From NCBI GenBank assembly GCA_019058295.1, contig JAHPZI010000026.1, forward strand, positions 11,067 to 75,066: DNA of 64,000 nt. Direction: 5' to 3'. The notes beneath the pieces are model-generated. The model saw only the letters and a program-made list of their open reading frames with translations, was not told the origin of the DNA and did no database searches. The stretch is from Promethearchaeota archaeon (lineage in GTDB: Archaea; Asgardarchaeota; Lokiarchaeia; Sigyniarchaeales; SOKP01). The translations under genes and the position numbers were made by a program. Positions 46,049 through 56,542 of the stretch are shown piece after piece (position 1 is the stretch's first letter; the number at the start of each line of letters is the position of its first letter).

Positions 46049-47716
46049 TTATTTCAATTTAGCAAAAATTTTTTTGCTTCTATCAACTTCTTTGAGAATT
46101 CTTCTTCCTTCTTTATTAGATAATGATAAATTAATTTCACTATTTCTGCTTAAGGATCCCGTAAAAATTTCCTTCTGGTCGGCGAAAACTTTAATATTTT
46201 GGCTAGCAAACCTTGGAGCTGCTTTTAATATAACTTTATCTTTTTTTATTATTACATCAAGCTCAATTCTTTCCTTATTTGAACTTACTCGTTTAAAAGT
46301 GGATGATTTTTTAAAATCAAGTGAAGAAGCTTTTGAAAGTTTTGATTTTTGTGGATTAATAGGATTTATGACGACATCTTGCCCAAAAGAATAAATTTCG
46401 AAAGCAAGTTGTCCTGAATTGAAATCTCTAACTTCTACAACAGGTCTGGCGAGATCTTTATCCCTAAAACCATGAGGTACTTTTACCGTCATTTTTATTA
46501 TTAAAACTGTCGAAATGTCGCCCCCCTCTATAAATATAATTGTATCTATAATAGAAGGAAGCATTCCAAGTTCGATGCGGCCAATAAATCTTTGGATTGC
46601 ATCTATCGCGGATGAAGAGTGTACAACGCCAACCATACCAACACCAGATAACCGAAAATCTGAATATATTTCAAAATCTTTTGTGGTTCTTACTTCATCA
46701 AAAATAGTGAAATCAGGTCTTACTAATAAAAGAATATCTGCTGAATTTTCAAGATTACCCTCTAATTTAGTATATTGAGTAATTTCTGGTTTAACTTGTA
46801 AATCTCTCACACTTTCTAAAGTTTTAACTACTTTATTCTGACCTAAATAATAATTAGCTAGTGCTGCAGAAAAAGTCGATTTACCTGCTCCTGGAGATCC
46901 GCAAACTAATATTCCCTCTGCGGTTTGCAATCTCTTTTGTAGTCTGGCATCAATTGAATAATCTGACAGTGTTAAGCTAACTAATGGATGAGTAGCTGTT
47001 ATTTCAACATCAGTAGAAAATGGTGGACGTGTTATTACTATTCTAAATTCCCTTAATTGTGCGACTACTGCGCCTTCTCTTTCTATTTCTATAAACGAAT
47101 GTTCGTCTTCTCTTACATTTTCAATTATCTCAAGGGCAATATCTTCTATTAGTTTATTGCCAATAGGCTCAGAATCAATTTTTACTAAGTGCCAATCACC
47201 AGGAGAACCTTTCTTTGCATAAGGTGGTAAATTTCGTTTAAGATGAACGCTCATGGTTGATTCATCAAAATAATCGAATATCTTAAGTTTAAGAGGTTCT
47301 TCTTTAAGGGGTGGTTTTTTTTCCCATGCAAACAACACTTCTAATCCTTCAAAAATACCAATATCTCCTTGAATTCTATCAGCCGTAATTAATACTGCAT
47401 TGTTTTCTAAGGCTGATTTTCGGATTAGCGCATCAAGCTCCCCGCCCGGACTCATTTTTATTTCTTCCCTCGTTGGACGGCTTCCAATGATTTTCAAATT
47501 AATTTTTTTCTCATTATGAAGCTCACGCAATTTTTTTAATACATTGAGACCATAAAATCCTATCTCCTTCTGAATATTTGTACGATATTCAACTTCTGCA
47601 ATTACGATATTAGAAATAATGATTTCTGGATGATCTCCCAATTCTCCGTCTTCGATTAGACTTAGAATCTGACCATTGAATATGACTGATGTATCGCAAG
47701 CAAATTTATCTGGCAT
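46049..47716 (-). CDS. PIN-domain ATPase (PINA family)
   Basis: DTSV PIN N-terminus, GSPGAGKST, KTLES.RDLQ, LLVRPD.TIFDEVR, GMVGVVH, DLARPV. Confidence 0.92.
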   Translation of the reverse strand: MPDKFACDTSVIFNGQILSLIEDGELGDHPEIIISNIVIAEVEYRTNIQKEIGFYGLNVLKKLRELHNEKKINLKIIGSRPTREEIKMSPGGELDALIRKSALENNAVLITADRIQGDIGIFEGLEVLFAWEKKPPLKEEPLKLKIFDYFDESTMSVHLKRNLPPYAKKGSPGDWHLVKIDSEPIGNKLIEDIALEIIENVREDEHSFIEIEREGAVVAQLREFRIVITRPPFSTDVEITATHPLVSLTLSDYSIDARLQKRLQTAEGILVCGSPGAGKSTFSAALANYYLGQNKVVKTLESVRDLQVKPEITQYTKLEGNLENSADILLLVRPDFTIFDEVRTTKDFEIYSDFRLSGVGMVGVVHSSSAIDAIQRFIGRIELGMLPSIIDTIIFIEGGDISTVLIIKMTVKVPHGFRDKDLARPVVEVRDFNSGQLAFEIYSFGQDVVINPINPQKSKLSKASSLDFKKSSTFKRVSSNKERIELDVIIKKDKVILKAAPRFASQNIKVFADQKEIFTGSLSRNSEINLSLSNKEGRRILKEVDRSKKIFAKLK

Positions 47717-48311
47717 TAAAATCAGAATCTATATCCTTATTCATAATTTGAAATTTCTTAACATTATAATAAATAGGCTTACTTAATCTATCCACTGTTG
47801 CAACAATTAGTTCCTTGCGAGAACTCAGAGCAACTTTAGACATTTTATCTAAATCTCTTAATTCAATTGGACTTCCCTCAAAAACGGGAAAAATCAAATA
47901 TTTTGCAGAATCTTTTTCATAATCCGCACCTCGATTATAAACTCGAAATTCAATTCCATCGCCATATCCCGTACGAACAATATACCCTCTCTTTCTTAAG
48001 TCCATGTAAATAATGTACTTATGCCATAATCTATCGTCAAATTGAGTAAAATAAGTTAATAAATCTTCAAAATCGTGTTGCTTTTTAGTTTTATCATTAT
48101 CTTCCCATAATAAAATTCTATTTCTTTCGCAAAGAAGTAGCGTTTCGACTGGAGCTAATATTAAAATTTCTTTTTCTTCTGTTGTTTTTTCAACATTACC
48201 TATGTATGAATTTTTATAAAATTCTTCAATTCCTTCAAGATCCGAAATTACAACTTTATCTTGTTCTATAGCACCTTCTATTTGAATCTTCTCATCAGAT
48301 TTTTCTGTCAT
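47706..48311 (-). CDS. endA: tRNA-splicing endonuclease subunit, probably structural/non-catalytic
   Basis: L...E.L.L, KYIIYMDLRKRGYIVRTG, FRVY, SRK.LIVA.VD. Confidence 0.8.
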   Translation of the reverse strand: MTEKSDEKIQIEGAIEQDKVVISDLEGIEEFYKNSYIGNVEKTTEEKEILILAPVETLLLCERNRILLWEDNDKTKKQHDFEDLLTYFTQFDDRLWHKYIIYMDLRKRGYIVRTGYGDGIEFRVYNRGADYEKDSAKYLIFPVFEGSPIELRDLDKMSKVALSSRKELIVATVDRLSKPIYYNVKKFQIMNKDIDSDFNAR

Positions 48312-48408: not shown

Positions 48409-48978
48409 ATGAAGGATTTACTCGAAACCATTTTAAATAAATTAAATGGTGCTTCAAAAATCATTTTCATTGGAGTTGGAGAAGTGAAATTAAACGATGA
48501 TGGAGTAGGACCATATATTATAAGTGAACTTTTATCATACTCTAATGAAAACTTCCTTTTTATTAATGCTAGTACCGATCCAATGGATAGAATTGATGAA
48601 ATCGTAGATTTTAATCCTTCACATATAGTAGTTATAGACACTTGTACATATAATGGTCCACCTGGAACTGTAGCGATATTAGAACGAGAAAATATGTGTG
48701 ATTATGTACCTATTTCAACTCATACTATACCGCTCTCTGTTGTAATTGATTTATTAGTAGAACGATTGCCAAATGCGGAGATTTTCATGATTGGATTAGT
48801 TCCAGAAGATTTAAAGGGTTTTACCCAATTAACCCTCTATAAAGAGAACGAATTATCCCTTGATGATTACTCTGAGAATATCGATTTGCCTTTTTTTAAT
48901 TTTAATTTATCAGACACTATTAAAGATGTAGCAGATAAACTAATAGATATAATAAAAAAAATTACTGAAAAAATATAA
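48409..48978 (+). CDS. Hydrogenase maturation protease (HycI-like)
   Basis: GVG....DDGVG, P.HIVVID, PG, STHTIPL. Confidence 0.85.
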   Translation: MKDLLETILNKLNGASKIIFIGVGEVKLNDDGVGPYIISELLSYSNENFLFINASTDPMDRIDEIVDFNPSHIVVIDTCTYNGPPGTVAILERENMCDYVPISTHTIPLSVVIDLLVERLPNAEIFMIGLVPEDLKGFTQLTLYKENELSLDDYSENIDLPFFNFNLSDTIKDVADKLIDIIKKITEKI

Positions 48979-48993
48979 ATTATTTTTTAGACT

Positions 48994-49248
48994 TTAATAA
49001 CCGCCTGCCTGCGTAGCCATAACAGTTATTACATCTTTTTTAGGATGGATACCTATTTTAGCAAATTTTAATTGATCAGGTAAAACCTTCCCTTTAAAAA
49101 TAAATTGAATAGCTAAAATCGGATTTAGCTTATATTCTCTCTGAACTGATTTTTTAATATCAGCAATATTTTGATTAGGATCTACCTCAATTAATTTAAT
49201 AGCCTGGTCTGGCGGGACTCCAGTAAGCCTAAATCTGTATTGTGTAAT
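48994..49248 (-). CDS. Ubiquitin/SUMO-like modifier precursor, 84 aa, ATT start (not in ORF track)
   Basis: (M)TQYRFRLTGVPPDQAIKLIEVDPNQNIADIKKSVQREYKLNPILAIQFIFKGKVLPDQLKFAKIGIHPKKDVITVMATQAGGY*; GGAAGTG RBS-like motif upstream. Confidence 0.85.
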   Translation of the reverse strand: MTQYRFRLTGVPPDQAIKLIEVDPNQNIADIKKSVQREYKLNPILAIQFIFKGKVLPDQLKFAKIGIHPKKDVITVMATQAGGY

Positions 49249-49407
49249 TTTTAATCACTTCCTTTTTTAAATTCGGAGATAAAATATATTATTATATATA
49301 TAAAGTTAATAAAAATAATTAAGTATTTTAGTCTAAAAGGTTATACTTGAGTTTAAAGCGACTTTTTTTTAGGATTCAATTAGATATTCAAGAAGGTGTT
49401 AGATATT

Positions 49408-49596
49408 TTAAAACCGAAATGGTTCAGGTGGAGGTGGGGGTCCAGGTGGTGCAGGACCTGGAGGAATAGGGGGGCCAGGTCTAAATGGAGGTCGTTTAAG
49501 TAAATTTTCTAATGATGAAAGTCTTTTTTCTATCTCATTTATCCTTTTTTCAATTTTATTAATTCTATCTAATAAATTCGGGTTTTCTAATGACAT
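49408..49596 (-). CDS. 62-aa coiled-coil plus polyproline microprotein
   Basis: LLDRINKIEKRINEIEKRLSSLENLL then RPPFRPGPPIPPGPAPPGPPPPPEPF; GC-rich relative to surroundings. Confidence 0.75.
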   Translation of the reverse strand: MSLENPNLLDRINKIEKRINEIEKRLSSLENLLKRPPFRPGPPIPPGPAPPGPPPPPEPFRF

Positions 49597-55801: not shown

Positions 55802-56542
55802 TTATTTAGAGCATATGCAGTTCTCATCTTTAACAACTTGTATTTTATTAAAACTTAAATCTAATAAGTTTACCATTAATAGATTGTCATATAAATTTGG
55901 AAGTCCTAATGTTGTTTTAATAACTTCTAAGGCTTCTAATGTTCCTAAAATCCCCGGAGTAACCCCTATTACCGGTAAAGGACCAGCATTTGGATCTATC
56001 GAATCTTTTTCAGGATCTGGAAATACACATTGATAACAAGCGCTCTTTTTAGGATTAATTGTAATTATTTGACCATAGAAGTCTTTTATTCCAGCAATTA
56101 CACATTTCATATTGTTTTCAATGGCAACTTTATTGACAAGAAATTTAGTTGATAAATTATCGCTGCAATCAACTATAAAATCTTGACCTTTTAAGTACTT
56201 TTTAATTGAATTTTCGTCTATATAATCCTTATATGTTTTAATCTGAATTTCAGAATTGAGATTGGATAAAACCTCTTTTGTTAATTCAGCTTTATTTCTA
56301 CCTATCTGTGTCTCGTTATATAAAATTTGTCTTTGTAAATTTGAAAGATCTAAAACATCGTTATCTATAATCGTCAATTCTTTTATTCCTGCAGCTGTAA
56401 GATATAAAGAACATGGAGATCCTAATCCCCCCATTCCAATTTGTAATACGCTAATATTTAATAATTTTTCTTGCCCCTCCTCACCAATTAGAGGGGATAT
56501 TATTTGTCGAGAGTATCTCTCTTTTTGGTTTTCTGTTAAAAT
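55802..56542 (-). CDS. ThiF/MoeB/E1-like adenylyltransferase, ATT start
   Basis: Frame extends upstream of the track start to include ERYSRQ..IGEEGQEKL..GMGGLGS; SNLQRQ, K, DCSDN, CYQC. Confidence 0.9.
   Translation of the reverse strand: MLTENQKERYSRQIISPLIGEEGQEKLLNISVLQIGMGGLGSPCSLYLTAAGIKELTIIDNDVLDLSNLQRQILYNETQIGRNKAELTKEVLSNLNSEIQIKTYKDYIDENSIKKYLKGQDFIVDCSDNLSTKFLVNKVAIENNMKCVIAGIKDFYGQIITINPKKSACYQCVFPDPEKDSIDPNAGPLPVIGVTPGILGTLEALEVIKTTLGLPNLYDNLLMVNLLDLSFNKIQVVKDENCICSK

Follow-up and report, generated by a model that had tools for sequence, protein, structure and literature searches.

Ubiquitin in Caldiarchaeum subterraneum is encoded together with an E1, an E2, a RING E3 and an Rpn11-type JAMM metalloprotease, which removes the tail of the precursor (PMC5654768, PMC6043591). 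Archaeal pro-ubiquitins with tails after the Gly-Gly were characterised earlier, and processing and conjugation in vitro have been published for both the Caldiarchaeum and the Helarchaeia pro-ubiquitin (PMC6043591; bioRxiv 10.1101/2023.07.25.550441). For the Lokiarchaeota, Supplementary Data 1 of Hatano et al. 2022 prints the protein Lokiarch_37670 as 'Ub', and a ubiquitin-UEV interaction was observed by yeast two-hybrid (PMC9192718).

We have analysed a window of 64,000 nucleotides from a Promethearchaeota archaeon of the Lokiarchaeia (GCA_019058295.1, contig JAHPZI010000026.1), in which an initial annotation had pointed to an 84-codon ORF with no ordinary start codon and had read its product as a SUMO-like modifier of a possibly overlooked Asgard conjugation system. 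We conclude, with a probability of roughly 85%, that the gene encodes the Lokiarchaeia ubiquitin, the orthologue of Lokiarch_37670, and that it has an AUU start and a precursor tail. The two proteins are identical at 78 of 83 positions and share the ...TVMATQAGG end and a tail beyond it; they differ in that Lokiarch_37670 has an ATG start and a five-residue tail (ISIIH), while the window gene has ATT and the single residue Tyr. The window protein also resembles the Caldiarchaeum and Helarchaeia proteins in being an archaeal ubiquitin of eukaryote type with residues after the Gly-Gly, but those are encoded in an operon with E1, E2, E3 and JAMM, whereas the window gene stands alone beside genes for a winged-helix protein and a HycI-type protease (Table 1).

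Table 1. Positions of the features discussed. Window positions are given unless a contig or locus is named.
Feature	Position	Strand	Remarks
Ubiquitin gene	48994..49248	minus	84 codons + TAA stop; Lokiarch_37670 orthologue
Inferred initiation codon ATT	49246..49248	minus	homologous to the ATG position of relatives
Shine-Dalgarno motif GGAAGTGAT	49254..49262	minus	includes in-frame TGA 49255-49257
Possible archaeal TATA box TTTATATATA	49295..49304	minus	~45 nt 5' of ATT; sequence reading only
Gly82-Gly83 codons GGC GGT	49000..49005	minus	predicted mature C-terminus
Tyr84 codon TAT	48997..48999	minus	one-residue tail after GG
Winged-helix protein gene, 372 aa	49797..50915	plus	divergent neighbour; Pfam HTH_5 and HTH_45 at N-terminus
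HycI-type maturation protease gene	48409-48978	plus	convergent on ubiquitin gene; 49/80 loci
tRNA-splicing endonuclease gene	47706-48311	minus	adjoins HycI-type gene; 26/80 loci
MoeB/ThiF-type E1-like gene, 246 codons	55802..56542	minus	ThiF 222 bits
PF00240-matching frames, own genome	C12:9883-10257, C22:3492-3878, C12:4181-4969, C22:4846-5691
Six genes with non-canonical start, own genome	C21:181915-182451, C21:117302-117799, C8:140-1027, C8:86786-87748, C6:130374-130808, C3:40372-40899
Site A inserts in relatives	L090:1714-1758, L092:1714-1759, L095:1028-1072, L096:2383-2427, L097:311-355, L098:4253-4297, L136:414-458, L137:414-458, L138:222-266
Site B insert	L129 (G027:C61:5981-6256)		30 nt with TAA, between Pro69 and Lys70
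Site C insert	L130 (G024:C105:6204-6490)		31 nt, frameshifting, between Lys61 and Phe62

Identity of the protein

The stop-to-stop frame covers 86 codons of the minus strand (48994-49254), of which 84 are counted from the ATT, and is bounded by a TGA (49255-49257) and a TAA (48994-48996); it reads L-K-I-T-Q-Y-R-F-R-L-T-G ... T-V-M-A-T-Q-A-G-G-Y. The translation matches the Pfam ubiquitin model PF00240 at 36.5 bits (cut-off 25.4), and HMMER aligns the same two segments, QFIFKGKVLPD and ubiquitin RLIFAGKQLED, whose likeness the initial annotation had noted. The AlphaFold model, built on 50 homologues, has a mean pLDDT of 92 and places its elements (E2-8, H13-16, E17-22, H28-38, E45-51, E73-80) in the order of the ubiquitin β-grasp. 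The best PDB match found by Foldseek is ubiquitin itself (TM 0.72-0.77 by model, 0.78-0.84 by target), followed by NEDD8, ISG15 and the Caldiarchaeum ubiquitin 6fnn_C (TM 0.75 by model, 0.71 by target). Compared with eukaryotic ubiquitin and NEDD8, the window protein keeps the fold, the I44/K48 region (as FIFKGK) and the Gly-Gly end, and it has a precursor tail as does the last repeat of eukaryotic polyubiquitin; however, identity is only ~20%, the β1-β2 loop is longer, the end is ATQAGG rather than LRLRGG, and the gene encodes a single-copy monomer, unlike polyubiquitin or the ribosomal fusions.

A word-index search returned 194 homologues at 69-96% identity, nearly all of them from Promethearchaeota or Lokiarchaeota assemblies and nearly all with a precomputed PF00240 match; several bear the NCBI name 'ubiquitin-like protein', and one comes from the cultured Lokiarchaeum ossiferum. 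Within the class, 135 of 161 genomes were found to have the gene, which is single-copy in the genome studied here. High identity over the full length, the single copy in the present genome and conserved neighbours make the window gene and Lokiarch_37670 orthologues. Since that orthologue has been published as the Lokiarchaeal ubiquitin, the proposal of an overlooked SUMO-like system amounts to a rediscovery: the family was already described, NCBI already names its relatives, and archaeal pro-ubiquitins had been characterised. The protein itself is the known Lokiarchaeal ubiquitin.

Genomic context and partner enzymes

Around the ubiquitin gene the winged-helix gene is the most conserved neighbour (77 of 80 loci), NadA is found in 65 of 80, and synteny decays with distance in the way of ordinary local gene order. 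HycI enzymes are known for hydrogenase maturation, and for this reason, together with the ordinary decay of synteny, we set aside the adjacent HycI-type protease as a candidate for trimming the tail. A 62-residue ORF with a coiled coil and a proline-rich tail (49408-49596, minus strand) lies 160 nt upstream of the ubiquitin gene; it is matched by tblastn in 21 of 80 related loci. Small genes of 59-62 residues, which may or may not be its homologues, occupy the corresponding site in L006 and L092.

The remark that no E2, E3 or protease gene adjoins the ORF is accurate as it stands, yet a ThiF-type E1-like gene lies 6.6 kb away and the other enzymes are encoded elsewhere. The genome, which is 79% complete, has four ThiF-type E1-like, three UQ_con E2 and six JAB genes. 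They form clusters, on C12 (a ubiquitin-like gene, E1, E2 and JAB), C4 (E1 and E2) and C28 (an E2-like gene, E1 and JAB), all on contigs other than that of the ubiquitin gene. Three JAB genes (frames of 446, 484 and 319 residues) lie within 3.2 kb at C28:148867-152058. No OTU protease was matched in this 79% complete genome; nor was a C48 (Ulp/SENP, PF02902) protease, whose absence from an assembly of that completeness is no proof. A Vps28 homologue is present; the Pfam UEV model finds no match here and none in any control genome either.

Four other frames of the genome match PF00240. Two have acidic N-terminal extensions and end in ...IPASTAG(I), and the other two form the C-terminal, ubiquitin-like part of larger proteins; the E1-E2-JAB cluster of C12 lies between the two C12 frames. 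As the ubiquitin-like genes in the E1/E2 clusters are these other paralogues, ending in ...STAG(I), the cluster enzymes may serve them instead of the window ubiquitin.

This arrangement bears on the alternative that survives best, a protein of SAMP or Urm1 style that would be activated by the E1-like enzyme of 55802-56542 without E2 or E3 and would act as a sulfur carrier, a simple tag or both. The ubiquitin gene does lie outside every E1/E2 cluster, the ubiquitin-like genes linked to those clusters being different paralogues, and of the 13 genomes with both genes on one contig, 11 have the compact 246-residue ThiF-type gene at a distance of 4-13 kb from it. The linkage is loose, however: the two genes do not form an operon, and some families of the order no longer show the linkage. 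Neither ThiS/MoaD (PF02597) nor Urm1 matches the window protein in Pfam, even at E values up to 10, and no ThiS, MoaD, SAMP or Urm1 fold occurs among the 50 best PDB matches, which are headed by ubiquitin and NEDD8. The Lokiarchaeum orthologue, moreover, is the 'Ub' used in the study that detected ubiquitin-UEV interactions. We regard a protein of this SAMP or Urm1 style as unlikely.

The initiation codon

Listing ORFs by ATG, GTG and TTG returns none at the ubiquitin locus, the only canonical start codon in frame being that of Met77; gene callers miss the ORF because its start is AUU. What the initial annotation had recorded here is correct: the lack of an ATG, GTG or TTG start in the 84 codons, the in-frame TGA three codons 5' of the ATT, the GGAAGTG heptamer (49256-49262) 7 nt before the ATT, and the same motif 6 nt before the minus-strand ATGs at 2983 and 43999. 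The heptamer occurs six times in the window where about three occurrences are expected, so that the count itself is not unusual.

We compared the homologous start codon at 82 loci (80 species representatives, the window and one further locus) and found ATT at 41, ATG at 30, ACG at five, ATA at three, TTG at two and GTG at one; every one is ATG or a single substitution away from it. On a tree of the conserved neighbouring gene at least 17 changes of the start codon are needed. Isoleucine codons at this position are 41 ATT, three ATA and no ATC, while inside the ubiquitin gene isoleucine is encoded 54% by ATT, 25% by ATA and 21% by ATC. Alleles starting with ATT and with ATG are under equally strong purifying selection (median dN/dS 0.011, with synonymous sites saturated, and 0.017, respectively). 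Contigs from two other samples (X2, of the study that is the probable source, and X3, of a different one) have the start region of the window with no difference listed, and the ATT is therefore not a slip of assembly. Contigs from RNA libraries of two studies, in which DNA carry-over is possible, span 49046-49258 and 49046-49263; they hint weakly at expression and, by their ends at 49258 and 49263, at a short leader.

The region upstream of the start has the conserved logo ..GG(G/A)(T/A)GTGA(T/A).., and the upstream stop is often the TGA within this Shine-Dalgarno motif. Duplex energies were computed against a generic 16S 3' tail, as the assembly includes no 16S gene or rRNA operon and the genome's own anti-Shine-Dalgarno is thus not assembled; on this basis the window motif reaches -12 kcal/mol. 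The median is -10.5 kcal/mol for ATT, ATA and ACG alleles versus -3.9 kcal/mol for ATG alleles (Mann-Whitney p = 3e-11). Once relatedness is allowed for, five independent pairs are left, all in the same direction but not significant, and we describe the association of a weak start codon with a strong Shine-Dalgarno as a trend, not a proven coupling.

A start elsewhere than at the AUU, for instance at the out-of-frame GUG in the Shine-Dalgarno with a later frameshift, or from a leaderless transcript, has to be weighed, as a GTG does overlap the motif and an in-frame GTG or TTG occurs upstream, before any stop, in seven of the 49 near-cognate loci (2-4 codons away in six of them). In the window, however, the GTG is out of frame and its own frame stops after nine codons; an in-frame ATG, GTG or TTG upstream, before a stop, is absent from 42 of the 49 non-canonical alleles; in most ATT alleles an in-frame stop separates any GTG from the ATT; and the ATT/ATG position is the only one conserved at a fixed distance from the Shine-Dalgarno. 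A homopolymer frameshift separating the upstream GTG from the frame was considered by comparison with P0006/L006 and rejected: L006 has an ATA start and a chance in-frame GTG. We judge a start at another codon to be quite improbable, and, from the comparison of sequences, the ATT is very likely the real start of the ubiquitin gene.

We envisage that the gene has its own promoter and a short leader, and that the strong Shine-Dalgarno GGAAGUGAU would position the small ribosomal subunit so as to bring the AUU, which follows after 7 nt, into the P site, where it would be decoded as methionine by the initiator tRNA.

The C-terminus and its processing

The ...TVMATQAGG end is nearly invariant in the family. 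Gly82 and Gly83 of the protein (G84 and G85 when numbered over the 86-residue frame) are at least 90% conserved among 36 aligned homologues; an alignment of 50 sequences has G82 invariant and G83 at least 90% conserved; and a Gly-Gly end was scored at 81 of the 82 loci. The one locus scored as aberrant (L038) does not show the odd end when the tail motif is located directly, and is probably a script artefact. What follows the Gly-Gly is variable: nothing at 19 of the 82 loci, one variable residue at 56 and two to three residues at six. A nearly invariant Gly-Gly with a variable tail behind it is what one would expect if the tail is cut away, and a conjugated modifier would have such a conserved Gly-Gly exposed either directly or after removal of the tail. 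We suggest, by analogy with Caldiarchaeum and Helarchaeia, that the tail would be cut off, our best guess and the most likely candidate being a JAMM/Rpn11-type metalloprotease of this genome, and that an E1 would adenylate the exposed Gly-Gly and hand it on to an E2, both enzymes being encoded elsewhere in the genome.

The description of the product as a Gly-Gly-Tyr precursor with a one-residue propeptide stands to the extent that the Gly-Gly is conserved and the tail is present; the SUMO1-type reading of the end does not. Likewise, the eukaryote-type ubiquitin fold holds, but its qualification as SUMO-like does not. The points of resemblance to SUMO are a Gln three residues before the Gly-Gly (...TQAGG against SUMO ...QTGG), synthesis as a precursor, and a family profile whose last 50 residues can be aligned with SUMO1 (E 0.06). 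That value is about as weak as those for ubiquitin monomers (E 0.04-0.07), and among solved chains the profile best matches the UBL domains of Get5/Mdy2 and Rad23; we therefore place the family on a branch of its own within the ubiquitin superfamily and not with SUMO. The SUMO-type model Rad60-SLD (PF11976) reaches 19.0 bits, below its Pfam cut-off of 23.8, SUMO chains rank lower in the Foldseek search (TM 0.62-0.75) than ubiquitin and NEDD8, the protein has no flexible N-terminal arm of SUMO type, no Ulp protease was found in the 79% complete genome, and the orthologue is published as the Lokiarchaeal ubiquitin. A distinct SUMO-like modifier with a conjugation machinery of its own, still unrecognised, is accordingly very improbable; neither the SUMO idea nor that of an overlooked system is supported.

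Least probable is a decaying or silent gene without a start codon, or an ATT produced by a sequencing error: the missing canonical start and the omission of the ORF from the annotation track would suit it, but it is contradicted by the ATT in 41 species, a dN/dS of 0.011, the single copy of the gene, the same letters in two other DNA samples and the RNA-library contigs of two studies that span the coding region.

Other genes with AUU or AUA starts

The Lokiarchaeia ubiquitin gene is not alone in its start, as ATT or ATA also serves at least seven further genes of this genome (at least eight with ubiquitin). The E1-like gene near the ubiquitin gene has its start at ATT (56540-56542) behind GAGGCGA, with no canonical start before the conserved RYSRQ motif; where its relatives read ATG TTA ACT GAA, this genus reads ATT TTA ACA GAA behind GAGGCGA or GAGGTGA, and the ATT start is found at 10 of 30 loci. 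We screened the genome for long frames that lack a canonical start nearby and open with ATT, ATA, ATC or ACG behind a strong Shine-Dalgarno. The screen gave 26 candidates. ATT and ATA are enriched over triplets of similar composition. In six of the eight candidates tested the Pfam domain begins 5' of the first canonical start, behind a Shine-Dalgarno and an ATT or ATA; these genes encode a Ras GTPase, a flavodoxin, two TFBs, ribosomal protein S12 and a rubrerythrin. A call from the canonical start would lose the P-loop of the Ras GTPase and the zinc ribbon of the TFBs.

Bacteria have AUU-started genes too, infC being one. Enterococcus ebpA is another (PMC4447247). The bacterial cases share with the present ones a near-cognate AUU behind a Shine-Dalgarno; they differ in that they are rare, gene-specific regulatory devices, whereas here there are at least eight genes in one genome and the codon alternates with ATG across species. 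In the literature searched we found no paper describing a habit of AUU or AUA starts in Asgard archaea. The AUU start of ubiquitin is well supported by comparison as part of a genome-wide habit, and the sequences indicate that the lineage has a relaxed start-codon repertoire, missed by gene callers that rely on ATG, GTG and TTG.

Candidate introns in related ubiquitin genes

The window ubiquitin gene is uninterrupted. Some relatives, however, encode 94-residue forms whose last β-strand is interrupted midway by ten extra residues, and one breaks off there; inserts of 30-31 nt occur in relatives only, at three sites. At site A nine distinct alleles have an insert of 30 or 31 nt between the codons for Ile74 and Thr75. 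Three of the nine inserts contain a stop codon, and one of these is also frameshifted, with the downstream ...TVMATQAGG frame intact. The bulge-helix-bulge is the motif of the archaeal tRNA-splicing endonuclease. All nine inserts fold into a 4-bp helix, a second 4-bp helix, a 3-nt bulge, a hairpin and return strands with a second 3-nt bulge (the fold of L136 was parsed by hand, the others by a script pattern), and if each bulge is cut behind its second base, D-V-I-T-V is restored in every case. Covariation is consistent with this structure, as 88% of the cells pair, compared with 37-58% when the partners are slid. The central helix is paired in all sequences, and one pair occurs as C-G, U-A and A-U, its exon side being the third position of a Val codon. 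We regard the site A insert, from these sequence features, as a candidate coding-sequence intron spliced by the endonuclease.

Sites B and C are represented by one gene each, in both cases the only copy found in its own genome, that with site C being 100% complete. Their folds (a helix of 3-4 bp, a 3-nt bulge and a hairpin of ~9 bp) were parsed by hand and are looser than that of site A. Three further loci (L133, L134 and L140) were considered as additional intron sites and set aside as partial or deleted extra copies. Two of the intron-bearing alleles also start with ATT.

As of 2020, cbf5 was the one known case of a bulge-helix-bulge intron within a coding sequence of archaea (PMC2738675), and the literature searched gave no report of introns in protein genes of Asgard archaea. 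Taken together, we think the odds slightly favour the broader proposal that Lokiarchaeia routinely start genes at AUU or AUA (sometimes ACG) behind a strong Shine-Dalgarno, which hides or truncates genes including those for ubiquitin, the E1-like enzyme, the Ras GTPase and TFB, and that the ubiquitin mRNA of some relatives would be spliced by the tRNA-splicing endonuclease at bulge-helix-bulge introns (three sites), the second such archaeal family after cbf5.

Implications

As a protein, the product of this gene adds nothing new to the known ubiquitin of the Lokiarchaeia; it is the encoding that matters in practice. Ubiquitin starts at ATT in half of the species examined, and ribosomal protein S12, two TFBs and a Ras GTPase are among the other genes of this genome that begin with ATT or ATA; hence surveys of Asgard genomes based on ATG, GTG and TTG undercount or truncate genes of the eukaryote-signature kind. 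The candidate introns, if spliced, would extend endonuclease-dependent splicing of mRNA to the closest archaeal relatives of eukaryotes.
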